A DNA stretch of 32,000 nt from Candidatus Nanoarchaeia archaeon. GTDB taxonomy: Archaea; Nanobdellota; Nanobdellia; Woesearchaeales; JANQNC01. Made by a program: the position numbers and the translations under genes. Every line of letters starts with the position of its first letter. Position 1 is the stretch's first letter. A model generated the notes under the pieces. That model saw nothing but the letters and a program-made list of their open reading frames with translations, was not told the DNA's origin and made no database searches. Location: NCBI GenBank assembly GCA_028279745.1, contig JANQNC010000001.1:1170001-1202000 (forward strand). Direction: 5' to 3'. This document shows, in pieces, positions 10,601 to 32,000 of the stretch.

Positions 10601-10606
10601 TTTTTA

Positions 10607-11323: not shown

Positions 11324-11346
11324 TTTTCTTTACCCCCTCGTTTTTT

Positions 11347-12143: not shown

Positions 12144-12242
12144 ATATAGATTATTAATCTTGAATATTATAAACTTTACTATTTTGAAATAGATAAACAA
12201 GAATACAAAAGAATAAAAAGGTGGGAATCTAAATTACTTTTT

Positions 12243-12920: not shown

Positions 12921-12973
12921 GGTGCGGAAATTTGAGGATAGTTGCAAAAGCAGGAGGTTTTGTAGGTGAATAT

Positions 12974-13787: not shown

Positions 13788-13847
13788 TGTGGGTTACAGA
13801 ATACACTTCTTATTTATAAACCTTTGCATTTTGTTACCACTTTCCAG

Positions 13848-14931: not shown

Positions 14932-14953
14932 AATCTGATTTTAGTATAGTGTG

Positions 14954-14961
14954 TATTTAAA
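14954..14961 (-). promoter_or_regulatory. candidate TATA box (TTTAAATA on the minus strand) for the small-protein/CPBP operon
   Basis: Plus-strand tatttaaa lies 23-30 nt upstream of the ATG at 14931. The spacing is consistent with a leaderless mRNA. Confidence 0.4.
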
Positions 14962-14991
14962 TGTTTTGGTAAGAAAAAGAGAAAATAAAAA

Positions 14992-15615
14992 TTATAAGAA
15001 ACTTAGGTAGTCAAGCTTGTTAGCAAAAGCATCAGTCCTAGGTTCATAATGTTTCAATACAGTAACAACATCCCATAATCCTGTAACAAAAGATTCTCTT
15101 TGGCCTTCTGGTATGTTGAACTTAACCTTTTGGTTGCCGTAAGTTAACATTTTCTTTTTTAGATCTATGTCTAGCTGAGATTTAGGGTTTTGTGTCACAT
15201 AATCTACAACCTTAGCGAGTTCTTCATTAGACACTGTAACTCCTGGCACGCCTAAACTTGCGCAGTTGCCCCAAAAGATTTCAGCCATGCTTTCTCCTGC
15301 AACAATGGCGTCAATACCAAACCTATGCAAACCTTGAGGTGCATGCTCTCTTGATGAACCACATCCAAAGTTTTCACCTGCAAGAAGGATATTAGCTCCT
15401 TTGTAATTTGGATCATTAAAAGGATGCTCCTTTACTTCCTTACCGTCCTTATACCTCTCATCAATAAAAACATAGTTCCCCATGTTAGAGAAAGTTATCT
15501 CTTTCAAGAACCTAGCAGGGAGAATATCGTCGGTGTTTAAGTTAGGTTGTGGTTTGGGAATACCTGTGCCTTTAATCCCAACTATCATATTTTCTTTTAT
15601 CACTAATTTTTTCAT
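14992..15615 (-). CDS. leuD: 3-isopropylmalate dehydratase small subunit, long bacterial-type
   Basis: GENFGCGSSREHAPQGL signature. 207 aa. Lies immediately downstream of leuC. Confidence 0.9.
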   Translation of the reverse strand: MKKLVIKENMIVGIKGTGIPKPQPNLNTDDILPARFLKEITFSNMGNYVFIDERYKDGKEVKEHPFNDPNYKGANILLAGENFGCGSSREHAPQGLHRFGIDAIVAGESMAEIFWGNCASLGVPGVTVSNEELAKVVDYVTQNPKSQLDIDLKKKMLTYGNQKVKFNIPEGQRESFVTGLWDVVTVLKHYEPRTDAFANKLDYLSFL

Positions 15616-15616
15616 C

Positions 15617-17029: not shown

Positions 17030-17035
17030 TTTAAT

Positions 17036-18148
17036 TTACCTCTTAACTGATTCGCACACTTGGTCAACAAGAGTGTCGAGACTTTTTGTAGCGTATTCTT
17101 TGTCTCTTAAGTTAGCTAAGACAGCTTCTTTAATTGCGTCAGCAGCCTTAACTTCTTTGGACTGTTCAAGCATCATCGCATAAGACAACAATGCGGCTTC
17201 AGGTTTTACCAATTGAACTTTTTCAGGTACGAATGTGTCAGGTATATATTCTGAGCCGTCCATCTCAAACCATTTATCCGGAGCAGTTCCGTGAATAGGT
17301 TCAAACATTGAAGGGAATGTACCTGTCGGATTTAAATTTCCTGATACTGCAGTTCCCATACCTCCTTGAATCACAGCTCCAAGATCAGTTGTGATATCGC
17401 CAAACATATTTTCAGTAATAACAACGTCAAATTGTTCTGGCTTTAAAACCATCTGCATGATAAAAGCGTCAATGTGCATATAGCTTATATTCAAGTCATC
17501 TTTTTGTTTGTACTCTTCGAAAACTCTTGACCAAGGACTTGCTGCATATGTAAGAACATTGTTTTTGAAAACAAAATGAAGTTCTGGCTTGTCTCCTTTC
17601 TTTCTAGCTCTTGCTCGCTCTTCAGCAAACTCAGCTAACCTCTTAACACCTTTGTAGCTGCAGTGCATCTCTTGAATGCCAACTTCATCATCAGTTCCAG
17701 CATTTTTAACTTCACCTTTAGCGACATAAAGTCCTTCTGAGTTTTCTCTGCAAATCTCAAAATTGATGTGTCTGTAATCTTTTCCAACAATGATTGAAGG
17801 AACGCCTTCAGGTAATACTACAGGTCTTAGATTAACGTACTGATCAAACTCTTGTCTTATCTTAAGCAAAATTCCAATCTCTAAAATTCCTGGCTTGATC
17901 TTTGTAGGGTCGCCAATAGCGCCTAAAAATATTTGGTCATATTGTTTAAGTTCATTAAGCTCGGAGTCTCTTAACTCTTTGATATCATGTTTTAAGAAAT
18001 ATGCTGCGTCATAATTAAAAATTTCATGTTTTACTGGCAATGTTAACTTATCTTGTACTGCATCAGCAACTTTCAGTGCAGCATCTGTAACAGTAATTCC
18101 GTTCAAGTCACCGGGGATCACTGCAAAATTGTGGTAGTCTTTTTCCAT
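17036..18148 (-). CDS. leuB: beta-decarboxylating dehydrogenase family protein: 3-isopropylmalate dehydrogenase by operon context, with motifs closer to the tartrate/homoisocitrate dehydrogenase branch
   Basis: FLGAIGDP, YVNLRPV, CRENSEGLY and NMFGDITTDLGAVIQGGMGTAVSGNLNP. GGAGG Shine-Dalgarno motif before the ATG. First gene of a tight leuB-leuC-leuD operon. Confidence 0.75.
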   Translation of the reverse strand: MEKDYHNFAVIPGDLNGITVTDAALKVADAVQDKLTLPVKHEIFNYDAAYFLKHDIKELRDSELNELKQYDQIFLGAIGDPTKIKPGILEIGILLKIRQEFDQYVNLRPVVLPEGVPSIIVGKDYRHINFEICRENSEGLYVAKGEVKNAGTDDEVGIQEMHCSYKGVKRLAEFAEERARARKKGDKPELHFVFKNNVLTYAASPWSRVFEEYKQKDDLNISYMHIDAFIMQMVLKPEQFDVVITENMFGDITTDLGAVIQGGMGTAVSGNLNPTGTFPSMFEPIHGTAPDKWFEMDGSEYIPDTFVPEKVQLVKPEAALLSYAMMLEQSKEVKAADAIKEAVLANLRDKEYATKSLDTLVDQVCESVKR

Positions 18149-18200
18149 TCTCGTTTCCTCCTCTATTTAGAACCTCTTTTTCAGGCAGAAAAGGAGCAGC

Positions 18201-18211
18201 TTATATATAAA
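18201..18211 (-). promoter_or_regulatory. candidate TATA box (TTTATATATAA on the minus strand) for the leuBCD operon
   Basis: Lies about 55-60 nt upstream of the ATG at 18148, with a GGAGG SD in between. Confidence 0.35.
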
Positions 18212-18242
18212 CATTCACAGTTGTTTTTAAAAGAAAAAGTTA

Positions 18243-18569
18243 TTATTTCTTGAGCTTGACTGCAGTTCCGTAAGCAAGCATTTCAGAAGCGCCCTGCATT
18301 ATCATTGATGTTGTAAACCTGACACCTATTACTGCATCTGCGCCTTTGTCTATAGCATCATTAACCATCCTATTGTAAGCTTCTTCTCTTGCATTTTTTG
18401 TCATGTCGGTATAGGTTTTAACTTCTCCACCTATGATGCTTTTGAATCCTGCACCTATATCTCTGCCAATGTTTCTTGCTCTTACTGTGCTGCCTTGAAC
18501 AACCCCTATAGTTTTAACGATAGTCTCTCCAGGAATATCATTTCCAGTTGTAACGATTAATTCTGCCAT
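18243..18569 (-). CDS. YbjQ/UPF0145 family protein
   Basis: IVTTGNDIPG...VVQGSTVRARNIGRDIGAGFKSIIGGE...Y...AR.EA...M...A...GADAVIGVRF is the classic UPF0145 pattern. 108 aa. Confidence 0.9.
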   Translation of the reverse strand: MAELIVTTGNDIPGETIVKTIGVVQGSTVRARNIGRDIGAGFKSIIGGEVKTYTDMTKNAREEAYNRMVNDAIDKGADAVIGVRFTTSMIMQGASEMLAYGTAVKLKK

Positions 18570-18570
18570 T

Positions 18571-18759
18571 TTATTTCTTACCTCGCTTTTTTATTTTTTC
18601 AATCTTATCTTCTTTTTTGTTGAATAGAATGAATGCTCCTACGATTAACATAGGGATACCATAAATTAATGTAACATAAATAAAAATACCTAGGATGGTA
18701 AGAACTAATCCTAAAACGATCATAGTGATTCCAGTTATTGTTCTGCTTGTCGTATTCAT
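18571..18759 (-). CDS. small two-TM membrane protein (hypothetical)
   Basis: 62 aa with two hydrophobic helices and a Lys-rich C-terminus. Only 1 nt separates it from ybjQ-like downstream. Confidence 0.5.
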   Translation of the reverse strand: MNTTSRTITGITMIVLGLVLTILGIFIYVTLIYGIPMLIVGAFILFNKKEDKIEKIKKRGKK

Positions 18760-18792
18760 GATTTGGTTGTGTTAAACTGAATATATAAATCT

Positions 18793-20328
18793 TTAGAAAT
18801 CACCGATCTTCTGCTGGCCTTTGGCTTGATCTTTAACACTTGCTTTGTCTTTGACTTTGATCCCAACTTGTTCCTTGATAGAGATTGCAACAGCTCTGCC
18901 GATTAAGTTTGCAAGTTTTTGCAAGTCTGCCTTTTTTACATGACCCAAATCTTTAATCTTATTGTTGAAAAGCTTTCTAGCTCTAACTCTGCCAACACCT
19001 TTTAACCTTAGTAAAGGCAGTAGTTCTTCTTTGACTCCATTCTTTAATCTTAATCTTAACTTGTTTAGTTCTGGAACAACTCCTCTTAAGTTTAAGATCT
19101 TAGAAAGTTCAACACAACCATAACAAAGCCAGTCTGCATTATCTATTTTTACTCTTAACTCTCCAGGTCTAACATCATAAGTTTCTAAAAGGTATTCTTC
19201 ATCCTTTTCCTCTATCCAATCATTAAGCATCAATGATGTCTTGAAAGCGCTGATAAAATAAGAGTATTCATCATCATAGCTGTTAGGTTCTTTTTCTAAA
19301 AGTTCATCGGTGTGTTCTGCAAGCTGATTTTCAATAATGCCCCACTCTTTTGTTTTTACTCTTAGTAAAGGCCGCATCTCTCCAGTCCTGCAAAGCATAT
19401 GTATAAGTGCAATAGGTTTTGGTTTAACTGCATTAGTTAAAGAGGTTGTGAACCTGTTAGCAGAAACAGGATCAAGATATAACTCACTAACTCTTCTTCC
19501 AAGTCTTGTGGCTTTAAGCTTGTTATCTTCTAGCTCTGCAGCAGAAACAAATTCATCTGTTGTTGAAGACTCTATAAACTTGAAGCTAGATAAAAGACCA
19601 ATCATGTTGTTAAGGATAGATTCAATTCTTTGCATATCTCCAAACTGGTGTGCATAGAATGTTTTTGAAAAGAATTTTAGTAAATCTTTCTTGTCTTTTA
19701 CAAATCCAGATGATACAAGTGAAAGGATAGCAGTTCTTAAGACTGGTTCAACTGCCAATTTAGAATAAATTTCTTCAGGTTGTCCGTGAACATACCTTTC
19801 AATAATCTCGTCGGCTTGATCGCGATCAGAAGTAATACTGATAGCTTCACCAAAAGTTTCTTTACCAGGACGTCCAGCCCTGCCAGTCATCTGATGGTAC
19901 TCAAGAACAGGAATCCAATCCATGCCATAGTTTCCAAAACGCTTGAGGTCTTTCATGACAGATCTGAAAGCAGGCAAGTCAACACCTGCAGCTAAGGTTG
20001 GAGTGCAACAAATTATTTTTATTGTTCCGTCCCTAAACGCGTCTTCTATTAGTGTCTTTTGTTTTTGAGCAAGTCCTGCGTGATGGAAAGCAATGCCTTT
20101 CTTAATACATCTTGACAGACGTTCACACTGTTTAGTTGGGTGAGATAACGCTTTTAAAACTTTTTCAGAAAGATCGTTAAGTTTAGCACTGATTAAGTCA
20201 GTTTTCTTACTGATATCTTCAGCCTGCTTCTCTGCACCACGTTTGCTATTGATAAAAACTAAAGCCTGTTTTCTAATTTTGATGGTGTCTAAAGCTATGT
20301 TGATTACATCATCTCCAGATTTTGCCAT
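18793..20328 (-). CDS. hel308: Ski2-like/Hel308-type helicase lacking the N-terminal RecA1 domain (RecA2 + winged-helix + ratchet + HhH domains only); split gene or pseudogene remnant
   Basis: The ORF starts just before motif IV (QALVFINSKRGAEK). Motif V (TPTLAAGVDLPA) and motif VI (HQMTGRAGRPG) follow, with a C-terminal HhH (GVGRVRARKLF). There is no Walker A or DExH anywhere in the ORF, and stop codons occur in all frames of the 111-nt upstream spacer. Confidence 0.85.
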   Translation of the reverse strand: MAKSGDDVINIALDTIKIRKQALVFINSKRGAEKQAEDISKKTDLISAKLNDLSEKVLKALSHPTKQCERLSRCIKKGIAFHHAGLAQKQKTLIEDAFRDGTIKIICCTPTLAAGVDLPAFRSVMKDLKRFGNYGMDWIPVLEYHQMTGRAGRPGKETFGEAISITSDRDQADEIIERYVHGQPEEIYSKLAVEPVLRTAILSLVSSGFVKDKKDLLKFFSKTFYAHQFGDMQRIESILNNMIGLLSSFKFIESSTTDEFVSAAELEDNKLKATRLGRRVSELYLDPVSANRFTTSLTNAVKPKPIALIHMLCRTGEMRPLLRVKTKEWGIIENQLAEHTDELLEKEPNSYDDEYSYFISAFKTSLMLNDWIEEKDEEYLLETYDVRPGELRVKIDNADWLCYGCVELSKILNLRGVVPELNKLRLRLKNGVKEELLPLLRLKGVGRVRARKLFNNKIKDLGHVKKADLQKLANLIGRAVAISIKEQVGIKVKDKASVKDQAKGQQKIGDF

Positions 20329-20442
20329 TTTGTCAAAAAAAGAGAAGGTTGTTTAAAACACTTTTGTCTCGGAAATTGTATATTCAAAAAGGAAACCTTT
20401 TTAAAGGAAAAAACTGAGTTTAGTGGTTAAGGGGGTTGTTTG

Positions 20443-23400
20443 ATGAAACTAAGCAAGGTCTTTCTAAAAGAGACCGTAATTGGGATGTCAGTAATACTGT
20501 TTGCATTACTTGTTGTACTAATTGCAGGGCCTCAAGATGGGCTGACTGGACATGCTGTTTATGAAGAATGTCAAAACTGCACCTCCGTAAATTCTTTAGA
20601 GATGAAGTATTTGGGTGAAGCTGAGGATGAAGTGGCTTATGTTTATTCTATGCAGGGTGTTGATGAGTATACAATAGACGAAGATGGAATGTTTACAGTC
20701 GTTGATGTATATGATGAGATGATAGTCTCAGTCGGAGATGTTAATGAAACAATCAATGCATCGTGTGGAAGTTCTTTAGAAAGTGGAGATGAGTTTGGAG
20801 AGCTGGTCATCGAGAGTGTTGATACAGGAGTAGAGGAAGTTTGTGAGCTAATTGAGATCCCAGATGAAAATGAAACAAACGAAACAGTTGGTCTGAATGT
20901 TACTTTGAATGAGACAATCGTTAATGAAACAATAAATGAAACTTTTGTGAATGAAACCATTAATGAAACTGTAAATGAAACTGTAGAGATAAATGTTACA
21001 ATTAATGAAACTAATCAAACTGTTGAGGTAAATGTTACTGTCAATGAAACTAATCAAACAATAAATGAAACGGCTGAAGAAAATACAACTGATGATTATG
21101 GATCTTTCTCTTATTGTCTAGACAAAGATAATGATGGATATTATGTAACAAACACATCTGCATGTGAAACCTTTATCGTTGTGGAGAATGACGGAAATGT
21201 GATTGCACCAGCAGGCTTTATGGAAGTTAAGGTAATGGCTGCAGAAATAACCTATGGAGCAACAGGACCAGAGATAGATGTATACGTGAAACTTATCGAA
21301 GACGGAGACTACACAACCTTATTTGGTGGAGTGGATGTAGATGGAAATGAAGCGTATAACAAAACACTAACATCAGAAACAGAGATAGCAATAGAAGGAA
21401 GAGCAAAATATGGAAGAAGATTCGACAGAACATACAGATCAGACACAGGAAGCGATCATGTAGAAGTATTGATGGATGGAGACGATCTTCCAGATTATGC
21501 GCCATTTGGAAATCAAGATTCTTTATCGACTATAATTGCGCCATTCGTAGATGAAAATAATAAGATAGACATAGATGTCAACCAAGTATTATTCTTATTC
21601 GAGTTTGCAACACTAAACACCGATGCGGCAGACTTCCAAGACTTAGTAGTATTATTAACATTTGAACCAGACGACTTTCCTTGCGAGTGTGGTGAGTTTG
21701 ATTGTGACGAGAATGATCCAAACATAAACCCTGGTGCCGCAGAAATATGTGACGGGATAGACAACGATTGTGACTTTTTTGCAGATGAAGAATTTGATGA
21801 TGACGGAGACGGATTTACTGTGTGTGGAGGAGACTGTAATGATAATGATGTTAACATAAATCCAAACGCAACTGAAATATGCAACTTCTTAGATGATGAC
21901 TGCGATGGAGAAATAGATGAAGGATTTGACTTAGATAATGATGGGTTTACAACATGCGGAGGAGATTGTGATGATAACAATTCAGAAGTAAACCCAGACG
22001 CTACAGAAATATGCGACGATGAAATTGACAATGATTGTAATGGTGATGTGGATTTTGAAGATGATGAATGTGCAAACATTTTACCAACAGCATCAATCAT
22101 AAGTCCTCTGTCAGGAAGTAACTTCAAACTAAACGAACAGATAGTATTCTCAGGAATCGGTACAGATAGTGATGGAACAGTTGTAAGTTACTCATGGGCA
22201 TCTAACGTTGACGGAACATTTGGAAGCAATGGAACTGTAACACACTCAGGACTTTCAATAGGAACACACGTAATCACACTGACTGTTACAGATGATCGAG
22301 GAGGACAGACAACAGATACAGTAACAATCACAATACTTGCTTTAAATTCACCAACAGCATCAATAATATCTCCTGCAGATGGATCAGACTTCAAACACAC
22401 AAACGAAATAACATTCTCAGGATTAGGAGATGATACAGACGGAACAATTGTAGGTTACTCTTGGGAGTCAAACGTAGATGGGGTATTGAATGATTCGTCC
22501 TTATTTACAACAAATGCATTAAGTGTGGGCATACATACAATAACATTCACAGTAGAAGATGATGATGGACTAACAGATGTAGATGAGATCACAATAACAG
22601 TAAAAGAGTTAGAGGCACCAACAGCTTCAATACTTTCACCTAACGATGGAGATGATTTCAAAGACGGAGACAATGTGTTGTTTTCGGGAACAGGATCAGA
22701 TACTGATGGAAGTGTTGTAAGTTACCAATGGTCATCAAGCATCGATGGTTTGATAGGAAACACAACATCATTCTCAACAACAGACTTGACAGTAGGATTA
22801 CATGAGATTGTACTAGTTGTAGTGGATGATGATGGATTAAATGATACAGACAGCATAGAGATTGAGGTAAAAGCATTGCGAGCACCTACAGCATCAATCA
22901 TATCGCCTAATGACGGAGACCATTACAAAGAAGCAGATAACATACTGTTTAGCGGAACTGGAAGTGATCCAGATGGTTATATCACAAAATGGTATTGGAG
23001 TTCTAGCGTTGATGGCTTGTTTAAAGAACAAACTGGAGGAAATGCAAGCACATTCTTCTATGACTCACTAAGTTTAGGAACACACGATATTACTCTGACA
23101 GTTGTAGACAATGATGGGTTACAATATGTTGATACATTTACAGTAACAATTGATGTAAACCCATTATTTGCACCAACCGCATCAATCATAACGCCACTGG
23201 ATGGAGTAGTATTCAGAGAAGGAGAAGTTATTGTCTTTAGTGGATATGGAGATGACATAAACGGAAATGTGACAGACTATGATTGGGTTTCAAGTTTAGA
23301 TGGAAGCATTGGAAGCGATATGACATTTACACATTCTAGTCTAAGTTTAGGAGAGCATGATATAACACTAATTGTTACAGACGATGACGGGCAAACAGGA

Positions 23401-26400
23401 GATGACACAATAACCATCACAATAATTGACAACGATTCACCAACCGCATCAATCACATCGCCAACAGATGGGGATAGTTACAAAGAAGGACACACAATCT
23501 TGTTTAACGGATACGGAGACAATGAAACTATAGTTGGATATTCATGGGCAAGTAATTTGGATGGTGTGATAGGTAATAGTTCAACATTCTCACTTGATAG
23601 CTTAACAGTGGGAGAACATGTAATAACCTTTACAGTATTAGACGATGATGGACAGACAGGATCAGACTCAATCACGATAAACGTAAATGCATTAGAAGCG
23701 CCAACAGTTTCAATAATAGCTCCACTAGATGGTTCTGATTACAAACATACACAACCAGTATACTTCGAAGGTGTAGGAACCGATACAGATGGAACAATTG
23801 AAAGTTACCATTGGACTTCTGATGTGGATGGGGTGATAGGGAATTCAAGCAGCTTCATAACAAGCACATTATCAACAGGACTGCATACAGTAACTTTAAC
23901 AGTAATAGATAGTGATGGTTTAGTGGGAACTGATGAGATTGAGTTAACAATAAAAGTTTTAGAAGCACCAACCGTATCGATACTTTCTCCTGATGATGGA
24001 GACAACTTCAAAGAGAATGACTCAATATTATTTAGCGGGATAGGAACAGATGCTGATGGAGTAATAACACAATGGTACTGGTCATCAAGTATAGATGGAT
24101 TAATGCATGAACAGACAGGAGGAAGTGCTAGTACGTTCTACTATCATTCATTAAGTTTAGGAACACATTTGATCACAGTTACAGTAATAGATGATGATGG
24201 ATTGCAGTATGTAGATACATTTACTGTTACAATAGATGTTAATCCTGAGTTTGCGCCAACAGCGTCTATAATCAGTCCGTTAGATGGAGTGGTCTTTAGA
24301 GATAATGATCTGATTGTCTTTAGCGGGCTAGGTGATGATGTAAATGGAGTTGTTGAAAGTTATCATTGGGTAAGCAGTGTGGATGGAACCTTAGGAGATA
24401 GTATGACATTTAACTCAACCGCATTAAGTGTTGGGACACATGACATAACATTAACTGTAACAGATGATGATGGACAGACAGGAGATGACACTATCAGCAT
24501 TACAGTGTTGGATAATGATATGCCAACAGCATCAATCATGGCACCAACCGATAACGATAATTTCAAAGATGGCCAAACAATATTATTCAGCGGGTTAGGA
24601 GGAGATGAAGTTATAACTGGATACGCTTGGTCAAGCAACATAGACGGTTTGATTGGAAACCTGTCTTCTTTTTCAACTTCAGATCTTAGTCTAGGAGAAC
24701 ATATCATTACATTTAGAGTGTTTGATGATGACGGACAGTCAGGTTCAGACTCAATCACGATTACAATAAATCCTTTAGTAGCACCAACCGCTTCTATAGT
24801 TAGTCCATTAGATGGAACAGATTACAAAGATGGACAAACTGTGCTATTTAGCGGGGTGGGAACAGACACAGACGGTGTGATCTCAAGTTATTACTGGAGT
24901 TCAAGTATAGATGGAGTTATTGGGAATTCGAGCAGTTTCAGTTCAAGCAATCTATCAGTCGGTCTTCATACTATAACATTCAGAGTAGTTGATGATGACA
25001 GCTTAATATCAACAGACACGATAGAAATTACAATCAAAGCACTAGAAGCACCTACTGCTTCTATACTAAGTCCAAATGATGGAGATCATTACAAAGAAAA
25101 TGACTCAATACTATTTAGCGGGACAGGAAGCGATCCCGATGGAGCTATAGTGAAGTGGACCTGGAGCTCAAGCATAGACGGACTGATCAAAGAACAGAAT
25201 GGGGGAACATCAAGCACATTCTTCTACAATGGATTAAGTTTAGGAACACACGATATAACATTAACTGTGGTTGATGATGACGGACTAAAATATGTAGATA
25301 CATTCACAGTAACAGTTGATGTAAATCCATTATTTGCACCAACAGCTTCTATTATTTCACCTCTTGGCGGCACAGTATTCAGAGATGATGACTTAATCGT
25401 GTTTAGTGGTTATGGTGATGATGTCAATGGAGTTGTTGAAGGTTATAGTTGGGTTTCAAGCTTAGACGGCACTATCGGAAATAATATGACATTCACCACA
25501 GATTTACTAAGCCAAGGAGTACACACTGTAACACTAACAGTAACAGATGATGATGGTCAGACAGGAGACGACACAATACAAATTACTGTGTTAGACAATG
25601 ATTCGCCTACCGCATCAATCACATCTCCAAATGATAATGACAATTTCAAAGAAGGACAAGAAATACTGTTTAGTGGGTATGGGGATAACGAGGTTATCAC
25701 TTCATACACTTGGACAAGTAATTTAGATGGAGTAATAGGAAGTGGTGCTACATTCTCAACAACAAACTTGACAGTAGGAGAACATGAAATAACCTTAACA
25801 GTATTAGATGATGATGGTCAAACCGGGTTTGACACAATAACTATAACAGTTAATGCATTAGAAGCACCAACAGTATCTATAATAGCTCCTCTGGATGGGG
25901 CAGATTACAAATACACATATCCTGTTTACTTTGAAGGTGTGGGGAGTGATTCAGATGGGGTTGTGGTTAATTACCAGTGGACTTCTGACATCGATGGGGT
26001 CATAGGAAACACAAGCAGTTTCATTACTGATGAACTTTCATTGGGATTACACACCATCACTCTTACTATTGTAGATGATGATGGGCTAATAGCAACAGAC
26101 GAGATAGAAGTAACAATAAAGCCATTGACTGCGCCTTCAGTGTCTATCTTAAGTCCAGATGAAGGAGATCACTTCAAAGAGAACGATTCAATATTATTTA
26201 GCGGGATAGGAACAGATTCAGATGGAATAATAACACAATGGTATTGGTCAAGCAGTATAGATGGATTATTCCATGAACAAACTGGGGGAAGTGCAAGTAC
26301 ATTCTATCACAATGAGCTGAGCTTAGGAACACACCTAATAACTGTAACAATCATAGACGATGATGGACTACAATATGTAGACACATTCACAGTAACAATT

Positions 26401-29400
26401 GACCTAAATCCAGAATTCGCACCAACAACATCTATAATTTCACCATTAGATGGATCAACATTTAGATCAGGAGACAATGTATTGTATAGTGGGTATGGAG
26501 ACGACATAAATGGATACATAACAGACTATTACTGGACATCAGACATAGATGGAGTGATAGGAAATGAGATGACATTTAGTTATTCTAATTTGACTGTGGG
26601 GCTTCATACAATAACATTGACTGTGACAGATGATGATGGGCAAACAGGAGACGATTCAATAACTGTAACTGTACTAGATAATGATGTGCCGACATCATCA
26701 ATAGTATCGCCAGGTGAAGGAGATAACTTCAAAGATGGACAGAGCATATTATTCAGTGGAGTGGGAGATAATGAAGTCATAACCGGATATGAATGGGTGT
26801 CAAACATAGACGGAGGATTAGGAAATAGTTCAACATTCTCAACTTCAATACTAAGTCTGGGTGAGCATACAATAACATTTAGAGTGTTTGATGATGACGG
26901 ACAATCTAACTCAGACTCAATAATGATCACAATAAATCCATTAGTTGCACCAACCGCTTCAATCATAAGTCCAATAGATGGAACAGACTACAAAGACGGC
27001 CAAACAGTGTTGTTTAATGGGATTGGAAGTGATACAGATGGTTTGATAGCTAGTTATTACTGGTCATCAGATGTAGATGGAGTAATAGGAAACACAAGCA
27101 GCTTTAGTTCAAACAACTTATCAGTTGGATTGCATACGATAACATTCAGGGCGGTAGATGAAGATGGGTTAATGGCATCAGATAGTGTAGACATAACAAT
27201 CAAAGCACTAGAAGCACCAACAGCTTCAATAATCAATCCAAACGATGGAGATCACTATAAAGAAAATGATTCAATCTTATTTAGTGGAATTGGATCAGAT
27301 CCAGATGGTGCTATAGTGAAGTGGTATTGGTCATCAAGTATAGATGGATTATTCCATGAACAAACTGGAGGATTAGCAAGCACATTCTATTATAACTCTT
27401 TGAGTCTAGGAACTCACCTGATTACATTAACAGTTGTAGATGACGACGAAATAAAATATGTAGATACATTCACAGTAACAATTGACGTAAATCCATTATT
27501 TGCACCAACAGCGTCTATCTTAAGTCCTGTAGAGGGCACAGTCTTTAGAGATGGAGACAGAGTGTTGTTTAGTGGATATGGCGATGACATAAATGGAGTT
27601 GTTGAAAGTTACTATTGGACATCAGACAAAGAAGGTGTTTTAGGAAATACAATGACATTTAATGTTTCTACCTTAAGTGTTGGGGTGCATGAGATAACAC
27701 TAACAGTTACAGACGATGACGGGCAAACAGGAGACGACTCAATTGTCATAACTGTACTAGATAACGATTCACCAACAGCATCAATCACATCACCTGCAGA
27801 TGGAGACAATTTCAAAGAAGGACAAAACATATTCTTCACAGGACTAGGGGATAATGAGGTCATTAGTTCATACACATGGGTAAGCAGTCTAGATGGAAGC
27901 TTAAGCTCAAGCCAGTCATTCACATACTCAGAGTTGACTATAGGCGAACATGTAATCACACTAACTGTAACAGATGATGATGGACAGTCAGCATCAGACT
28001 CAATTACAGTTACAATAAACCCATTAGTTGCACCGGTAGCATCAATAATCTCACCAGTGGACCAAGCAGACTACAAAGAAAACCAGTTTGTAATGTTCAA
28101 TGGGGTCGGGAGTGATAGCGACGGAAGCATAGTAGATTACTACTGGACATCAGACGTAGAAGGAGTAGTAGGTAATGGAAACATGTTCAGTACTGATGAG
28201 CTATCAATAGGCTATCACACAATAACACTAACAGTTGTAGATAATGACGGATTGATAGGAACTGATGAGTTGGAGATAACAATCAAACCATTAACAGCAC
28301 CAACCGCATCAATCGTAAAACCAGACACGGGAGACCACTTCAAAGAACAAACACCAGTAGAGTTCATCGGCTCTGGCTCAGATCCAGACGGTGAGATAAT
28401 AGAATGGATATGGACAAGCGATGTAGATGGAGAGTTTGGTAGTTCGCAAAGGTTCAACTATTCAGAACTAAGTCTGGGAAGACACGATGTCACTTTGACT
28501 GTAGTGGATGATGACGCACTAAGATACACAGACACATTCACAATATGGATAGAGATAGATCCTCTAAGATCACCTAATGTAACCATAACAACACCACAAG
28601 ATAAAATTACAGTGAAAGAAGATGTAGTGGTTGTATTTGATGCGAACGTAACATATGACCCTGTATCAACAGGATCGTCATACTACTGGGTGAGCGACAT
28701 AGATGGAATGCTGGATGAAGGAACAGGAGTTCCAGTGTTGTTTAGTACGGATGAGTTATCTATTGGATATCATACAATAACACTAACAACAATAGACTCA
28801 AGAAACTTATCAGGATCAGACACAGTGCATCTATGGATAGCACCATTGCTTTCTCCAGAAGTCAATATCAGTTCACCACCAAATAACTCAACATACTGGG
28901 AAGGAGACTCAATCAATTTCTCCGCATTGATAACAGATGACGGAACGATACAATCAATACTATGGAACTCAGATCTAGACGGAAATATTGGAAACAGTTC
29001 AAACTTCACCTACTCAGGATTAACAGTAGGAGAACACAGAATAACCTTGATAGTTGTAGATGATGATAATTTAACCACGGTAACACAAATAACTGTGCTT
29101 ATCAAGAAAAAAGAATCAGGCGGAGGAGATGATGACGATGATGAAGATGGAGGCGGATCTGGAGGCTCCGGAGGATTAGGAGGAATACCTAAACCAGTCG
29201 AAATTGAAGAACCTGAAGAGTTAGAAGAAGGACTTCAGATAAAAATAGTGGAATCACCTTCCGGACTAAATATTGAAGAAGGAAAATTCGTTATTGTTGC
29301 AGAAATAATAAACAATGGAGACACTGTGTTGAAGGATATTAATGCGGAATTAGAAAAGATTGATGGATGGAAATCTAATACAGTATACATCGGTGAGTTA

Positions 29401-29916
29401 GCTGTTGATGAAAGAGTAATTGTTACATTCGAAGTAGAATCAGAAATATGTGCGCTTGGGAAAGAAGTAGGACAAATAGACAGAGAGCTAGAAATAGTTG
29501 CGGTGGCAGAGAATGAAGCTGTAAGTGATACAGATAAAGTGATGGTGGATGTAGAAGCAGAAACATTTGCAGTATTAAATGATGTAATTGACAATCAGAT
29601 AAAAGTATGTTTCATTATAGACAATAAAGGTAATGATGAAAGAAATAAAGTAGAGATAGAAATTGGAGTGTATGAAGAGGAGATAGCAGTGCTTCTTGAC
29701 TACATAACAAACATAGACGTAGAGAGTGACGAAATATTTATAAAAACAAAAGAGTATGAGTTAAGCTATATACCAGAAACAAAAAGCTACACATTAAGAG
29801 CAGACCTTTACGAAAAGGGAAAATTGTTCAGTAGCGAATATAAAATAGCAGACTCAGAAACTCAAGTAGAACTGCAAAAAACAGGAAAATCATTATGGGA
29901 ACAGATGTTTTCGTAA
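20443..29916 (+). CDS. giant (3157 aa) N-terminally anchored cell-surface protein with 26 PKD-like domains; putative adhesin
   Basis: Uninterrupted 9474-nt ORF in AT-rich DNA. The ATG at 20443 follows GGGGG. N-terminal TM VIGMSVILFALLVVLIAG. PKD-type motifs (Y.W.S..DG and H.ITLTV.DDDG) recur 26 times. See the repeat features below. Confidence 0.95.
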   Translation: MKLSKVFLKETVIGMSVILFALLVVLIAGPQDGLTGHAVYEECQNCTSVNSLEMKYLGEAEDEVAYVYSMQGVDEYTIDEDGMFTVVDVYDEMIVSVGDVNETINASCGSSLESGDEFGELVIESVDTGVEEVCELIEIPDENETNETVGLNVTLNETIVNETINETFVNETINETVNETVEINVTINETNQTVEVNVTVNETNQTINETAEENTTDDYGSFSYCLDKDNDGYYVTNTSACETFIVVENDGNVIAPAGFMEVKVMAAEITYGATGPEIDVYVKLIEDGDYTTLFGGVDVDGNEAYNKTLTSETEIAIEGRAKYGRRFDRTYRSDTGSDHVEVLMDGDDLPDYAPFGNQDSLSTIIAPFVDENNKIDIDVNQVLFLFEFATLNTDAADFQDLVVLLTFEPDDFPCECGEFDCDENDPNINPGAAEICDGIDNDCDFFADEEFDDDGDGFTVCGGDCNDNDVNINPNATEICNFLDDDCDGEIDEGFDLDNDGFTTCGGDCDDNNSEVNPDATEICDDEIDNDCNGDVDFEDDECANILPTASIISPLSGSNFKLNEQIVFSGIGTDSDGTVVSYSWASNVDGTFGSNGTVTHSGLSIGTHVITLTVTDDRGGQTTDTVTITILALNSPTASIISPADGSDFKHTNEITFSGLGDDTDGTIVGYSWESNVDGVLNDSSLFTTNALSVGIHTITFTVEDDDGLTDVDEITITVKELEAPTASILSPNDGDDFKDGDNVLFSGTGSDTDGSVVSYQWSSSIDGLIGNTTSFSTTDLTVGLHEIVLVVVDDDGLNDTDSIEIEVKALRAPTASIISPNDGDHYKEADNILFSGTGSDPDGYITKWYWSSSVDGLFKEQTGGNASTFFYDSLSLGTHDITLTVVDNDGLQYVDTFTVTIDVNPLFAPTASIITPLDGVVFREGEVIVFSGYGDDINGNVTDYDWVSSLDGSIGSDMTFTHSSLSLGEHDITLIVTDDDGQTGDDTITITIIDNDSPTASITSPTDGDSYKEGHTILFNGYGDNETIVGYSWASNLDGVIGNSSTFSLDSLTVGEHVITFTVLDDDGQTGSDSITINVNALEAPTVSIIAPLDGSDYKHTQPVYFEGVGTDTDGTIESYHWTSDVDGVIGNSSSFITSTLSTGLHTVTLTVIDSDGLVGTDEIELTIKVLEAPTVSILSPDDGDNFKENDSILFSGIGTDADGVITQWYWSSSIDGLMHEQTGGSASTFYYHSLSLGTHLITVTVIDDDGLQYVDTFTVTIDVNPEFAPTASIISPLDGVVFRDNDLIVFSGLGDDVNGVVESYHWVSSVDGTLGDSMTFNSTALSVGTHDITLTVTDDDGQTGDDTISITVLDNDMPTASIMAPTDNDNFKDGQTILFSGLGGDEVITGYAWSSNIDGLIGNLSSFSTSDLSLGEHIITFRVFDDDGQSGSDSITITINPLVAPTASIVSPLDGTDYKDGQTVLFSGVGTDTDGVISSYYWSSSIDGVIGNSSSFSSSNLSVGLHTITFRVVDDDSLISTDTIEITIKALEAPTASILSPNDGDHYKENDSILFSGTGSDPDGAIVKWTWSSSIDGLIKEQNGGTSSTFFYNGLSLGTHDITLTVVDDDGLKYVDTFTVTVDVNPLFAPTASIISPLGGTVFRDDDLIVFSGYGDDVNGVVEGYSWVSSLDGTIGNNMTFTTDLLSQGVHTVTLTVTDDDGQTGDDTIQITVLDNDSPTASITSPNDNDNFKEGQEILFSGYGDNEVITSYTWTSNLDGVIGSGATFSTTNLTVGEHEITLTVLDDDGQTGFDTITITVNALEAPTVSIIAPLDGADYKYTYPVYFEGVGSDSDGVVVNYQWTSDIDGVIGNTSSFITDELSLGLHTITLTIVDDDGLIATDEIEVTIKPLTAPSVSILSPDEGDHFKENDSILFSGIGTDSDGIITQWYWSSSIDGLFHEQTGGSASTFYHNELSLGTHLITVTIIDDDGLQYVDTFTVTIDLNPEFAPTTSIISPLDGSTFRSGDNVLYSGYGDDINGYITDYYWTSDIDGVIGNEMTFSYSNLTVGLHTITLTVTDDDGQTGDDSITVTVLDNDVPTSSIVSPGEGDNFKDGQSILFSGVGDNEVITGYEWVSNIDGGLGNSSTFSTSILSLGEHTITFRVFDDDGQSNSDSIMITINPLVAPTASIISPIDGTDYKDGQTVLFNGIGSDTDGLIASYYWSSDVDGVIGNTSSFSSNNLSVGLHTITFRAVDEDGLMASDSVDITIKALEAPTASIINPNDGDHYKENDSILFSGIGSDPDGAIVKWYWSSSIDGLFHEQTGGLASTFYYNSLSLGTHLITLTVVDDDEIKYVDTFTVTIDVNPLFAPTASILSPVEGTVFRDGDRVLFSGYGDDINGVVESYYWTSDKEGVLGNTMTFNVSTLSVGVHEITLTVTDDDGQTGDDSIVITVLDNDSPTASITSPADGDNFKEGQNIFFTGLGDNEVISSYTWVSSLDGSLSSSQSFTYSELTIGEHVITLTVTDDDGQSASDSITVTINPLVAPVASIISPVDQADYKENQFVMFNGVGSDSDGSIVDYYWTSDVEGVVGNGNMFSTDELSIGYHTITLTVVDNDGLIGTDELEITIKPLTAPTASIVKPDTGDHFKEQTPVEFIGSGSDPDGEIIEWIWTSDVDGEFGSSQRFNYSELSLGRHDVTLTVVDDDALRYTDTFTIWIEIDPLRSPNVTITTPQDKITVKEDVVVVFDANVTYDPVSTGSSYYWVSDIDGMLDEGTGVPVLFSTDELSIGYHTITLTTIDSRNLSGSDTVHLWIAPLLSPEVNISSPPNNSTYWEGDSINFSALITDDGTIQSILWNSDLDGNIGNSSNFTYSGLTVGEHRITLIVVDDDNLTTVTQITVLIKKKESGGGDDDDDEDGGGSGGSGGLGGIPKPVEIEEPEELEEGLQIKIVESPSGLNIEEGKFVIVAEIINNGDTVLKDINAELEKIDGWKSNTVYIGELAVDERVIVTFEVESEICALGKEVGQIDRELEIVAVAENEAVSDTDKVMVDVEAETFAVLNDVIDNQIKVCFIIDNKGNDERNKVEIEIGVYEEEIAVLLDYITNIDVESDEIFIKTKEYELSYIPETKSYTLRADLYEKGKLFSSEYKIADSETQVELQKTGKSLWEQMFS
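20869..21090 (+). repeat. N-x-T sequon microrepeat: 17 N-glycosylation sequons in 74 codons, based on a reiterated AATGAAAC unit
   Basis: NETNETVGLNVTLNETIVNETINETFVNETINETVNETVEINVTINETNQTVEVNVTVNETNQTINETAEENTT, counted by hand. Confidence 0.9.
21682..22071 (+). repeat. three tandem Cys/Asp-rich repeats resembling the MopE-type 'putative metal-binding motif'
   Basis: DCDENDPNINPGAAEICDGIDNDCD / GGDCNDNDVNINPNATEICNFLDDDCDGEIDEGFD / GGDCDDNNSEVNPDATEICDDEIDNDCNGDVD. Confidence 0.7.
22078..29109 (+). repeat. array of 26 tandem PKD/Ig-like domain-coding repeats (87-96 codons each)
   Basis: Each unit reads (L/N)xxPT(A/V)SIxSPxDGxxFKxxxxIxFSGxGxDxDGxxxxYxWxSxxDGxxGxxxxFxxxxLxxGxHxITLTVxDDDGxxxxDxIxIxV. 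Unit boundaries were located by hand at 22081, 22342, 22609, 22876, 23164, 23431, 23692, 23959 and onward. Confidence 0.9.
22876..28290 (+). repeat. five head-to-tail super-repeats of exactly 1083 nt (361 codons = four PKD-like subtypes of 96+89+87+89 codons)
   Basis: Equivalent first codons of the 96-codon subtype fall at 22876, 23959, 25042, 26125 and 27208. The next unit starts at 28291. Every interval is 1083 nt. Confidence 0.9.
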
Positions 29917-29940
29917 AAGAAAAAAAGAGGTTGATGAAAA

Positions 29941-30016
29941 ATGGTATGCAACAGCCGGTTACGCTCGGCTGGCGCGCAAAAGGCGGCATGCGCTCACTGA
30001 CGTTCGCTTAGCCACC
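29941..30016. other. GC-rich island with two short GC stem-loops in the intergenic spacer; candidate structured RNA or foreign remnant
   Basis: ...gcaacagccggttacgctcggctggcgcgcaaaaggcggcatgcgctcactgacgttcgcttagccacc is conspicuously GC-rich against AT-rich flanks. Stems are agccg/cggct (29953-29970) and gcgca/tgcgc (29974-29993). Confidence 0.3.
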
Positions 30017-30036
30017 TACAAAAGAGGTAAACAAAA

Positions 30037-30663
30037 ATGGTGTATATATTCGGGCTTGACATTCCGTTAATAGAGGTATTCTTCATACTGTTGATAATAG
30101 GAATAATACTGGCGGCAGTAATAGTCTACATTATCGTGAAAATAATGCAGATGAACAAAAAGATGGACTATGTTTTGAGTCAGGAGAAAAAGAAACTAGT
30201 GCAGTTCTCAGACATAACTGAAAAGGAGAAAAAAGAGTTAGCTGATTTAAGGAAATTAGAAAGAGAGCTAGATGATCTGCTTGATCAAGAAGAAGATGCA
30301 GTCAAAGCATTAGAAAAGTTAAAGACTGTAAGAAAGACAAAACCCAAGAAGAAAGCAGTTCGCCATGAGCCAACCAGTTCACCAGTAGAGAAAGGAAAAG
30401 ACTTCGTAAAAGCTTTACTTGGAGCAACAATGAGACACGAAGAAAAACCAGTCTGGAGGACAGAGAAGTGGAGAAAAGAAGGTTTGGTCTTGGTGTTAAG
30501 AAATGATAATGGTTCCATAAAAGAATGGAGAAAACATCCGCTATCAGGCATACCAGAATCACAAGTTCCATGGAAAAAAGAACACTGGTACTCTGAAGGA
30601 GATGTTGCAGTGTTAAGAAGACCAGATGGAACCTTAATCGACTGGGAAAAACTAAAGAAATGA
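30037..30663 (+). CDS. N-terminally anchored hypothetical protein with a charged coiled-coil region and two C-terminal Trp-rich repeats
   Basis: AGAGGT SD. TM FFILLIIGIILAAVIVYIIV. KE-rich helix. Repeats are VWRTEKWRKEGLVLVLRNDNGSIKEWRK and PWKKEHWYSEGDVAVLRRPDGTLIDWEK. Confidence 0.7.
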   Translation: MVYIFGLDIPLIEVFFILLIIGIILAAVIVYIIVKIMQMNKKMDYVLSQEKKKLVQFSDITEKEKKELADLRKLERELDDLLDQEEDAVKALEKLKTVRKTKPKKKAVRHEPTSSPVEKGKDFVKALLGATMRHEEKPVWRTEKWRKEGLVLVLRNDNGSIKEWRKHPLSGIPESQVPWKKEHWYSEGDVAVLRRPDGTLIDWEKLKK

Positions 30664-30732
30664 AAATTCTTTAAGAATTTTCAATCTTTATGGATAAATC
30701 CATAAAGAAGTAATTCTTTATTATTATTTTTT

Positions 30733-31824
30733 TTATCTACTTCTACTCTTACTTAACATATAACCAATGAAAAGAACAGCGACCACAACAATGATCAGGA
30801 TAAACATCAGGAAATCATTTTTGTTCAATTCTTCATCCTCATTGAAAGGAATCATACCTTCACTATCTTCACCATTTGCAGATCCATCTGTGCTATCTGT
30901 CGGTTGAGTATTATCTGGGTTTGTGGTTGATGAATCTCTAGGAGTGGGAGTTATGCCAGATCCTTCGCTGCCTGGACCTCCTGCACCACCGCTGCCTTCA
31001 CCTTCACCAGAAGCACCACCTTCGCCAGTGTTGTTTGTAGGGACTGGAGGAGGTAAACCAGGATCAGGTATCCAATCTTTCTTCAAAGGAAGATTATCCG
31101 TATTGGAACCAATTGCAACAGTGTCATCACAGAAACTGTCGTAGTTATCATCCAAGCAACCTTGACCTTCTAAGCCGAAATCACCCCAATAGTTTCCGCC
31201 TGTGTTTGGACCATCAACAACATTCCTCTTAGTCTTTTGAGGAACATTCCAGTTATTATTGCTATTATCAAAAGCGTTAACCGCATTAGCTAGATAGTTA
31301 TCATAAAAGTAGTTATTGTTGGAGTTGTCAACGTAAATACCAGAACCTTGAGCACCAGTAATAGTATTAGAGTAAAACTGGTTATTATTTGAGTTAACTA
31401 CATGTACGCCATGAACAGCAGAATCAGTTATTTCGTTTTCAATTATTACATTAGTAGATGATTGAACAACCTTGATACCTGTGTCACAGCTATCTATAGT
31501 ATTGTATGCTACGCTGCTGCCATCACTGCCTATAGAAACACCTTGTTGTATGCCTATTTGGAAGTTCTCAACAGTACAATGACTTACGCTTAACTCAGAG
31601 AAGTCCTGCATCAGAATGCCTGTGCCAGAACCATCGCCTCTAATAACGTGGTCGTTACAGTTAAGGATTACATCATTGGCACCAATTGTCAAACCATCGT
31701 CTGAACAGTTAAGATCTTCAAGTAGGTCTACACTTTCAGTAAGAACATCGCCGCAGCTTACAGCAAATGCTGTGCTGATTGATAATAAAATTGCAAATAA
31801 AAACGTATAGTATTTCATATTCAT
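30733..31824 (-). CDS. secreted right-handed parallel beta-helix (NosD-like / PbH1 repeat) protein with a Gly/Ser/Pro/Thr-rich stalk and a C-terminal TM anchor
   Basis: Signal peptide MNMKYYTFLFAILLSISTAFA. Repeats are N.I..N.I......G(I/V).V..S..N (e.g. NVIIENEITDSAVHGVHVVNSNNNQFYSNTITGAQGSGIYVDNSNNNYFYDN). GGNYWGDF and D..CDD...I....D..PL motifs are typical of NosD-type domains. The C-terminus is FLMFILIIVVVAVLFIGYMLSKSRSR. Confidence 0.8.
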   Translation of the reverse strand: MNMKYYTFLFAILLSISTAFAVSCGDVLTESVDLLEDLNCSDDGLTIGANDVILNCNDHVIRGDGSGTGILMQDFSELSVSHCTVENFQIGIQQGVSIGSDGSSVAYNTIDSCDTGIKVVQSSTNVIIENEITDSAVHGVHVVNSNNNQFYSNTITGAQGSGIYVDNSNNNYFYDNYLANAVNAFDNSNNNWNVPQKTKRNVVDGPNTGGNYWGDFGLEGQGCLDDNYDSFCDDTVAIGSNTDNLPLKKDWIPDPGLPPPVPTNNTGEGGASGEGEGSGGAGGPGSEGSGITPTPRDSSTTNPDNTQPTDSTDGSANGEDSEGMIPFNEDEELNKNDFLMFILIIVVVAVLFIGYMLSKSRSR

Positions 31825-31870
31825 AACCTCTTTTGTTTTATACTAAATTATTTAATTTATAAATGTTTGT

Positions 31871-32000
31871 CTAATTTACTGTGGCGCTAACAAAATCATA
31901 ATCAAGAGCTTCAGTTGCCACCATAATCCACTCATCAGACTCTAACCTTGTATTAAGTACAAGATTTAATCTCATCCAAACCTCCTCTTCAGCACATTTT
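31871..32000 (-). CDS. C-terminal fragment of an unidentified protein (ORF enters from the right edge)
   Basis: Own translation of the minus strand gives 42 open codons, ...KCAEEEVWMRLNLVLNTRLESDEWIMVATEALDYDFVSATVN, then TAG (31873..31871). The one other minus frame I translated contains a stop. Confidence 0.35.
   Translation of the reverse strand, partial: KCAEEEVWMRLNLVLNTRLESDEWIMVATEALDYDFVSATVN

Follow-up and report, generated by a model that had tools for sequence, protein, structure and literature searches.

Giant adhesins of Gram-negative bacteria, such as MpIBP of Marinomonas primoryensis, LapA and SiiE, are built of immunoglobulin-like (Ig-like) repeats stiffened by Ca2+. Little is known of how DPANN archaea recognise other cells and stay attached to them, and suspicion usually falls on surface proteins of very large size. 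Such giant surface proteins are recognised candidates for host interaction in DPANN archaea (PMC6642349; bioRxiv 10.1101/2023.10.27.564410), and PKD and Ig folds have been noted on DPANN surfaces (bioRxiv 10.1101/2023.10.27.564410). The SPEARE proteins of Nanohaloarchaeota, for which a role in host interaction has been proposed, are 3,315-8,553 amino acids (aa) long, mostly extracytoplasmic and equipped with one transmembrane (TM) helix and adhesion domains; they are defined by serine protease, laminin-G and cytoplasmic type III restriction endonuclease domains (PMC6642349). Here we analysed a stretch of 32,000 nt (hereafter the window; positions 1,170,001 to 1,202,000 of contig JANQNC010000001.1, Candidatus Nanoarchaeia archaeon) that contains a giant gene for a protein of 3,157 aa. 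We put the probability at roughly 55% that this gene encodes a long-reach, adhesin-type surface fibre of a Woesearchaeota-like DPANN archaeon.

The giant protein follows a logic like that of MpIBP, LapA and SiiE, namely an N-terminal retention end, a long tandem extender of acidic Ig-like domains and ligand modules at one or both ends. However, it belongs to an archaeon without an outer membrane, its repeats are PKD rather than BIg domains, and its retention would be by a TM helix. No HemolysinCabind or related Pfam model, indicative of RTX nonapeptide repeats or a type I secretion C-terminal signal, matched the giant protein. With SPEARE proteins it shares great length, a mostly extracytoplasmic chain and one TM helix (N-proximal in one SPEARE protein), but Pfam searches gave no protease, LamG or restriction endonuclease domain, and no sequence relationship was found. 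A further comparison is with large minor pilins of bacteria of the Candidate Phyla Radiation (CPR), represented by P0115 (Falkowbacteria MFD04716.bin.1.162), P0101 and P0106. These proteins of 450-950 aa are encoded between PilC and PilM and start with a G/FxxxE prepilin signal (here and below a slash within a motif marks a cleavage position); they contain a beta-sandwich 47-60% identical to that of the giant protein, directly followed by MopE. The pilins end there, whereas the window protein has another N-terminus and runs 2,600 aa further. By its sequence, the giant protein is neither a SPEARE protein nor a recognisable pilin, a sortase-type substrate or an RTX adhesin; it would work like the bacterial Ig-repeat adhesins without being a member of any of these families. 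What is new is the combination of a cassette of head, tail and partner gene with a beta-sandwich of CPR-pilin type, a dense sequon spacer and a stalk of 26 PKD domains. A giant adhesin as such is expected for an organism of this kind; the unannotated domain, its sharing between CPR and DPANN and the partner gene are the parts of note.

Integrity and domain order of the giant gene

The frame of the giant gene opens at 20440 (TTG) or 20443 (ATG) on the + strand, ends at 29916 and, read from the ATG, has no internal stop. It takes up 29.6% of the window, as in the initial annotation, which had described an uninterrupted frame filling 30%. The calculated mass of the product is 339 kDa and its pI about 4.05. 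The base composition of the window predicts one stop per roughly 14 codons, and 3,157 open codons would arise by chance with p of about 5e-101. The features of the gene and of its surroundings are as follows.

20379..20442, + strand: upstream region of the giant gene, read from the sequence
20443..29916, + strand: coding sequence of the giant protein, complete, 3,157 aa plus stop
20443..20556, + strand: N-terminal leader, aa 1-38, from hydropathy; motif kept in the homologue P0131
20557..20862, + strand: head domain, aa 39-140, with 4 Cys, of no known family
20863..21090, + strand: N-x-T sequon array (NET, NVT, NQT), aa 141-216
21091..21678, + strand: beta-sandwich domain of an unannotated family, aa 217-412, from profile search, AlphaFold2 and the motif D-F-Q-D-L-V-V
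21679..22080, + strand: three MopE-type Cys/Asp-rich motifs (PF11617), aa 413-546, with 14 Cys
22081..29115, + strand: 26 PKD domains, aa 547-2891, 87-96 aa each, without Cys
26254..26285, + strand: 32-nt exact repeat, copy 1; Logan contig L001 ends here
27337..27368, + strand: 32-nt exact repeat, copy 2; Logan contig L085 starts here
29116..29184, + strand: flexible Gly/Ser/Asp linker, aa 2892-2914, from the translation
29185..29913, + strand: tail module, aa 2915-3157, a CARDB/NEW3-like sandwich of ~110 aa plus about 120 aa
30037..30663, + strand: partner gene, 208 aa, homologous to the gene directly after P0131

Upstream of the giant gene there are TATA-like A/T-rich boxes at about 20379-20386 and 20398-20405, which may act as a promoter, and a Shine-Dalgarno-like, G-rich AGGGGG at 20430-20435, 7 nt before the ATG.

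A frame of this length could be an assembly chimera, contain a wrong number of repeats or belong to a decaying gene. The identical 3,157-aa product is found in the NCBI records, on a single contig of 1,301,350 bp, and two Logan contigs, which stem from an independent assembly (run SRR20820740), are 100% identical to window positions 8812-26283 and 27339-32000. They stop exactly at the two copies of the 32-mer, which is the behaviour to be expected of an assembler working with k=31; this 32-mer is the longest exact repeat within the gene and the single one of at least 31 nt. Only the 1,055 nt at 26284-27338 lie outside both independent contigs, and the fact that they correspond to about one super-repeat, with a 32-nt exact repeat at either flank, is what speaks for an artefact. 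The remaining 8.4 kb of the gene are identical in the independent assembly. Reads longer than about 40 nt resolve a 32-nt repeat, and an assembly artefact is therefore very unlikely. The identity of merely 68-74% between the PKD super-repeats at the DNA level, the open frame and the position of the gene on a 1.3-Mb contig count in the same direction. We thus regard an artefact as extremely improbable and this explanation as already largely refuted. The repeats in the giant protein are old. We also considered, and rejected, that the entire gene had been acquired horizontally in recent times (GC 38%; GC3 0.26 versus 0.29; codon-usage correlation with core genes 0.79).

The giant protein begins with the basic MKLSKVFLKE, followed by a hydrophobic helix of ~19 residues (aa 11-29), PQDGLTGHA and then VYEEC; after the helix the sequence reads PQDGLTGHAVYEEC. 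Besides one marginal window, the leader helix is the only segment with a hydropathy above 1.6, and there is none at the C-terminus. The residues before the helix are basic and those after it acidic, and by the positive-inside rule an N-in/C-out orientation is therefore expected, with everything after aa 30 outside and only about 10 aa in the cytoplasm. Two readings of the leader are open to it, a signal-anchor and a long signal peptide that might be cleaved at a G-x-A site ahead of VYEEC, in a motif that reads LTGHAVYEEC in the giant protein and ITGRAVYEEC in P0131. Although G-H-A/V is a legitimate signal-peptidase site, we favour the signal-anchor. Four other secreted proteins of the window have signal peptides of 12-15 residues ending directly in AFA or VSA, and the leader of the giant protein, with a core of 19-20 residues and a 9-residue tail, looks to be of a different class. 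A pilin-type N-terminus was not detected either: aa 1-64 gave no match to the N_methyl (PF07963) or Pilin_N (PF07790) hidden Markov model (HMM) even at E<=5, and the class III signal test found FLKE/TVIG, with no G, A or S ahead of the helix. Only the internal beta-sandwich is common with pilins.

Behind the leader, the head domain is 37% identical to P0131 over aa 6-164; it has no Pfam match, and its alignment (A5) gave no relatives in the scan of JGI metagenomes. The adjoining array comprises 17 N-x-[ST] sequons between aa 143 and 214. The segment aa 141-215 holds 16 of them, compared to a mean of 3.8 and a maximum of 9 when it is shuffled. The array, which is missing from P0131, is probably an N-glycosylated spacer. 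Following the beta-sandwich, Cu-binding_MopE (PF11617) matched with 90.5 bits against a cut-off of 27, in three stretches at about aa 420-545, and these motifs are putatively metal-binding. The PKD families PF22352 (K319L-like_PKD), PF00801 and PF18911 reached 373.4, 300.6 and 234.5 bits (cut-offs 27, 23.5 and 27), and segmentation by motifs together with an HMM built from the repeats themselves gave exactly 26 domains. Domains 3-24 form 5.5 copies of a four-domain unit, A-B-C-D, of 361 aa (1,083 nt), and an additional eight-domain periodicity is seen (domains 8 and 16 at 88%; domains 4, 12 and 20 at 83-84%). The closest solved relatives are the PKD domains of KIAA0319L (AAVR) and of the collagenase ColH. 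Most repeats carry a DDDG-type loop, and SPxDG starts occur. All Cys residues of the giant protein lie in its head, its MopE motifs or its tail.

The stalk is joined through the linker SGGGDDDDDEDGGGSGGSGGLGG to a C-terminal module of 243 aa, which ends in ...KSLWEQMFS. Beyond aa 30 the chain has no hydrophobic segment, and it lacks the VPEL plus TM tail carried by the VPEL proteins of the window. In an AlphaFold2 model made from two sequences, the first 110-125 residues of the tail form an Ig-like sandwich (pLDDT 60-90), whereas the rest has a pLDDT of about 30; the fold matches are generic Ig/MG/FixG-like sandwiches. A word-indexed homology search returned nothing for the module, and its alignment (A4) had no relatives in JGI metagenomes.

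The initial annotation had read much of this order from the translation, namely one N-terminal TM helix, the LTGHAV motif, a 17-sequon array, three Cys/Asp-rich metal-binding-like repeats, 26 PKD domains, and a linker with a module of about 240 aa lacking a sorting tail. Hydropathy, counting and the PKD and MopE profile searches bear this out, except that a DDDG loop had been assigned to each PKD domain and is found in most. The expected CARDB/NEW3 character of the tail stood in part: the tail start of P0131 matches CARDB (PF07705) with 34.3 bits, above the threshold of 22.7, but the giant protein itself has only a weak match to NEW3 (PF10633; 14.3 bits, cut-off 24.4).

The pilin-associated beta-sandwich and the P0131 cassette

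The segment aa 217-412 had been taken for an unknown domain; it is instead a member of a widespread, pilin-associated beta-sandwich family. Most proteins of this family are type IV pilin-like, and those nearest to the giant protein are the large minor pilins from CPR pilus operons. An N-terminal query, otherwise swamped by MopE matches, yielded the five best-covered relatives, which are 48-59% identical to the giant protein and carry the domain in the C-terminal part of proteins starting with prepilin signals (KGFSLLEIL...), with a MopE motif behind it as in the giant protein. A family profile of about 190 aa, with the motifs ITYGxxGP, DVDGGE and AADFQDLV (alignments A2 and A3), was searched against 1.84 billion cluster representatives; 804 members were recovered at E<=1e-3, and 397 at the stricter limit of E<=1e-10. 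The family has invariant and near-invariant columns, and aa 217-412 of the giant protein fit its profile. No Pfam (2025) or NCBIfam (2026) model covers the domain, and searches of PDB sequences with the profile returned nothing meaningful. The recurrent partner domains among 85 full-length members were N_methyl (10), MopE (10), archaeal Pilin_N (5), PilX_N (3) and Tad (2), and no others. In reference genomes (the GTDB representatives scanned did not include the window's own genome), the domain was present in CPR bacteria (Falkowbacteria, Parcubacteria, Peribacterales), Planctomycetota (Phycisphaerae), Lentisphaerae, UBA10199-type deltaproteobacteria, Thermoplasmata and Methanosarcina. This sandwich of ~190 aa, absent from current domain libraries, is a hallmark of pilin-like proteins from CPR bacteria, Planctomycetota, Thermoplasmata and Methanosarcina and may act as a lectin that depends on Ca.

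Each of the three nearest bacterial homologues that were examined belongs to an operon of the order PilB, PilC, a 142-aa gene, the beta-sandwich protein, a pilin, a gene, PilM and a pilin. A neighbour-joining tree built on 164 core columns joins the window protein and P0131 to P0030, which has a bacterial-type prepilin N-terminus (100/100 bootstrap). This group falls inside the CPR clade (100/100), at a clear distance from the clades of Thermoplasmata and Methanosarcina. Its placement there suggests that the module was exchanged, in either direction, between CPR-type bacteria and the DPANN lineage.

The operon is conserved in Falkowbacteria and relatives (L083 4596-13314, L086 3745-11525 and L087 4305-12053), where PilB may be preceded by NDK and the large minor pilin combines beta-sandwich and MopE. 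The middle of this large pilin is highly variable, with acidic disulfide repeats, Big_2 or DUF4215. About 3 kb downstream of the operon, L086 holds a bAvd-like gene and a reverse transcriptase (RVT_1) at 14485-15876, a pair that is the signature of a diversity-generating retroelement. Many family members with PilX-like N-termini, among them P0151, P0154, P0157 and P0163, have acidic runs and the upstream motif ICHVPPGNPxNxHT(L/I)xV, which looks like a further conserved, unannotated element of these pilus proteins.

AlphaFold2 confidently modelled aa 217-412 from a 35-sequence alignment as an all-beta sandwich (pLDDT 91.7, pTM 0.88). Foldseek found no close solved structure for this model; the best matches were C2 domains (TM 0.3-0.47), the PA-IIL-family lectins BclA (probability 0.99, TMt 0.57, E 1.4e-2) and thrombocorticin, and a DUF4114 protein ranked second among viral models (probability 0.99). 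The matches to BclA and DUF4114 are weak but agree with each other. In PilY1.1, a pilus-tip protein of Myxococcus, DUF4114 has been described as an N-terminal, Ca-dependent domain that probably binds exopolysaccharide, and as related to PA-IIL, RS-IIL and BclA (PMC9109919). PA-IIL (LecB)/BclA and DUF4114 share with the window domain the beta-sandwich, a C-terminal strand motif D-[FY]-[NQ]-D-x-V-V and the association with pilus tips. However, the window domain has about 190 aa compared to about 115 aa, three of the five loop ligands align, and neither HMM searches nor hhalign gave significant support. In the hhalign alignment of the profile with LecB (sequence checked against PDB 1OUR), which has a probability of 6.5%, the family-invariant D177-F-Q179-D180-L-V-V falls on D101-Y-N103-D104-A-V-V; we take the Ca2+ ligands of LecB to be E95, D99, D101, N103 and D104. 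These comparisons are suggestive of a distant relationship to Ca-dependent lectins and of a possible Ca site of PA-IIL/DUF4114 type.

The profile search also retrieved P0131, a protein of 1,053 aa from a 7-kb contig of the same sample (Logan SRR20820740_50899; L003) and the only family-level homologue found. It is 37% identical to the giant protein in the head, 52% in the beta-sandwich (66% in its core) and 37% in the C-terminal 240 aa, and both proteins contain MopE. The stalk of P0131 consists of about 450 aa of Cys-rich MopE/DUF4215 repeats, with no PKD domain and no sequon array. P0131 was rejected as a paralogue from the same genome, being absent from the 1.3-Mb NCBI contig, and its neighbours (a tRNA-synthetase fragment, a nitroreductase and PolB) are unlike those of the giant gene. 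The gene pair therefore recurs in a second organism and context.

The gene directly after P0131 encodes a 333-aa homologue of the 208-aa partner protein, 51% identical over the C-terminal 145 aa and 37% over the N-terminus. The partner protein has an N-terminal TM helix, with a short acidic N-terminus outside and KKMD inside, a cytoplasmic coiled coil and a basic, Trp-rich C-terminal domain, and by the positive-inside rule would be mostly cytoplasmic. Between the two partners the TM N-terminus YIFGxDIPLxExFF is kept and the length of the coiled coil varies. The partner protein had no family match, and its alignment (A6) found no relatives in the IMG/VR scan. Since P0131 shares head and tail with the giant protein and is followed by a partner homologue, the two genes appear to form a cassette in which head, tail and partner are conserved and the stalk is exchangeable, an arrangement that points to candidate functional parts.

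Proposed working of the fibre and competing readings

The data show the integrity of the gene, the identity of its domains, their family relations, the conserved cassette and the lineage of the host. For the adhesin-type fibre we propose the following working, in which export and anchoring, glycosylation, Ca2+ binding, the length of the stalk, the ligand and the role in host contact are all inferred. The basic N-terminus and single helix would direct the chain through Sec in an N-in/C-out orientation and, most likely, serve as its membrane tether. Close to the membrane would lie the small Cys-containing head and a protease-resistant spacer of 75 residues with its 17 N-glycosylation sequons, then a beta-sandwich as in large minor (tip-type) type IV pilins, which probably binds Ca2+ and carbohydrate, and then three MopE knots of disulfide/Ca type. 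The 26 acidic PKD domains would make a stalk of about 100 nm, estimated at ~4 nm per Ig-like domain and probably stiffened by Ca2+, as the DDDG loops, the SPxDG starts and the analogy with bacterial giant adhesins suggest. The flexible Gly/Ser linker would join this stalk to the CARDB-like C-terminal module. Head and tail would be the functional ends, candidates for ligand binding and cell attachment, with the stalk as an exchangeable spacer, and the single-pass partner encoded downstream could serve, through its cytoplasmic coiled coil, in anchoring, assembly or coupling. The 26 PKD domains, three MopE motifs and CARDB-like tail are all extracellular-type families, which supports the reading as a surface fibre. 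The ligand of the fibre may be a glycan of a host cell, the envelope of the cell itself or a polymer from the environment.

Several observations weigh against this proposal. The G-H-A before VYEEC fits the -3/-1 rule, so the helix may be cleaved, and if it is, no recognisable anchor is left, there being neither a C-terminal TM helix nor a VPEL-type sorting tail. If the protein is N-anchored, the lectin-like domain would lie close to the membrane and not at the far tip, an odd place for a module that binds a ligand. The link to PA-IIL and DUF4114 is itself statistically weak, with query-normalised TM-scores below 0.5 besides the hhalign probability of 6.5%; E95 and D99 of LecB are not matched in register, and PF13448 (DUF4114) is touched by one of 35 family members (E=0.09). 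The second half of the tail has no usable fold in the AlphaFold2 model. Finally, the cassette rests on two examples from one sample, and scans of JGI metagenomes and IMG/VR gave no further members.

Cleavage after LTGHA would turn the molecule round: the protein would be released, or held by its tail in the S-layer or matrix, with the lectin-like head as its free distal end. This would agree with the residues G (-3) and A (-1) behind the helix-breaking GPQDG, with ITGRA/VYEEC in P0131, with the pilin relatives, whose membrane helix and beta-sandwich stand at opposite ends, and with the fact that no other anchor signal was seen in the giant protein. However, a core of 19-20 residues with a 9-residue c-region differs from the 12-15-residue AFA/VSA signal peptides of the window and the tail has no evident retention mechanism, and we consider such a matrix protein unlikely. 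The fibre could also capture substrate or metal, binding polysaccharide, mineral or metal ions for nutrition or biofilm anchoring. PKD, CARDB/NEW3 and lectin-like folds are common in proteins that bind or degrade polysaccharides, the closest solved PKD domains include those of ColH, the MopE-type motifs are named after a copper-binding protein, and DUF4114 of PilY1.1 is a proposed exopolysaccharide binder (PMC9109919). Pfam finds no catalytic domain in the 3,157 aa, and the only difference from an adhesin would be the ligand, on which the sequence is silent; capture seems to us quite unlikely.

A giant subunit borne in or on the tip of a type IV pilus-like filament would need a non-canonical class III leader. 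The beta-sandwich family is linked with pilin-type N-termini, both bacterial and archaeal, as well as with type IV pilus operons, a canonical archaeal class III protein (270 aa, RGQ/AATEFL) is encoded ~2 kb downstream, and ETVIG at the start of the helix loosely resembles the xVIG motif of archaeal pilins. Nevertheless, the cleavage position reads KE/T, with no G, A or S at -1, the pilin HMM searches of the N-terminus were negative, the window has no PilB or PilC gene, and we know of no precedent for a 339-kDa pilin with 26 Ig-like domains. We consider a pilus subunit very unlikely.

Returning to the adhesin-type fibre, a bolder extension is that the giant protein and its partner constitute an undescribed two-gene fibre system of DPANN archaea, whose module for cell recognition, a PA-IIL/DUF4114-like Ca-lectin sandwich plus a MopE knot, was exchanged with CPR pilus-tip pilins; the fibre might even sit on a type IV pilus-like filament by way of a non-canonical N-terminus of pilin type. 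We hold this extension to be speculative and unlikely. If it were true, two unrelated groups of episymbionts would have one glycan-binding attachment device in common. If none of these proposals holds, the giant gene is still a well-documented but ordinary giant surface protein of a DPANN archaeon.

Host and neighbouring genes

The window contains an archaeal exosome/proteasome superoperon (7721-11688, - strand) with Rrp42, Rrp41, Rrp4, SBDS, proteasome alpha and Pop5. The best named relatives of proteasome alpha (64-68% identity) come without exception from Candidatus Woesearchaeota or Nanoarchaeia and therefore point to a Woesearchaeota-like, small-genome DPANN archaeon as the host. Together with the 1.3-Mb contig, this agrees with the small-genome archaeal host assumed in the initial annotation, which had also described the giant gene as divergent from a truncated helicase gene and its region as an accessory surface island. 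The divergent helicase gene and the richness of the region in envelope genes were confirmed.

The helicase is of Hel308 type (18793-20328, - strand, 511 aa) and is separated from the giant gene by 114 nt. Its frame starts within the second RecA domain and covers Helicase_C (aa 68-155), HTH_61, domain 4 and HhH; the first RecA/DEAD domain is missing, so that the gene is either truncated or a stand-alone C-terminal paralogue.

On the other side, the spacer of 120 nt between the giant gene and the partner gene contains a GC-rich stretch of ~75 nt (29941-30015), where 150-nt windows reach 42-44% GC compared to about 37% for the whole window. The stretch had no Rfam or tRNA match, showed no sign of folding (z = 0.09) and did not recur in the fetched loci. 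In the P0131 cassette (L003) the spacer measures merely 15 nt and lacks it. The conserved cassette does not include this GC-rich spacer.

Envelope genes follow on the - strand. A NosD-like right-handed beta-helix protein (30733-31824) has a classical signal peptide ending in ...STAFA/VSCG, a linker rich in Gly, Ser, Pro and Thr and, at its C-terminus, a TM helix with SKSRSR behind it. The 270-aa protein, encoded at 31874-32000 and continuing in L085 at 3569-4381, has the archaeal class III N-terminus MNYRSRGQ/AATEFLTTISWGILIVII... and is pilin-like. Upstream of its gene, beyond the end of the window (L085 283-3420), lies the gene for a very acidic PKD/Big_9/cadherin-like protein of 1,045 aa (1,061 aa in the NCBI call). 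The genes for the 270-aa and 1,045-aa proteins both lie on the 1.3-Mb contig and have the same orientation as the NosD-like gene.

Near the other end of the window, three adjacent genes on the + strand (3181-4254, 4256-4975 and 5214-5771) encode small, Cys-rich, acidic secreted proteins. All three end in E-VPEL-(S/N)-(S/T), a TM helix and KKK or KKR, that is, in a PEP-CTERM/archaeosortase-like tail, and the first of them has a weak match to DUF4215.

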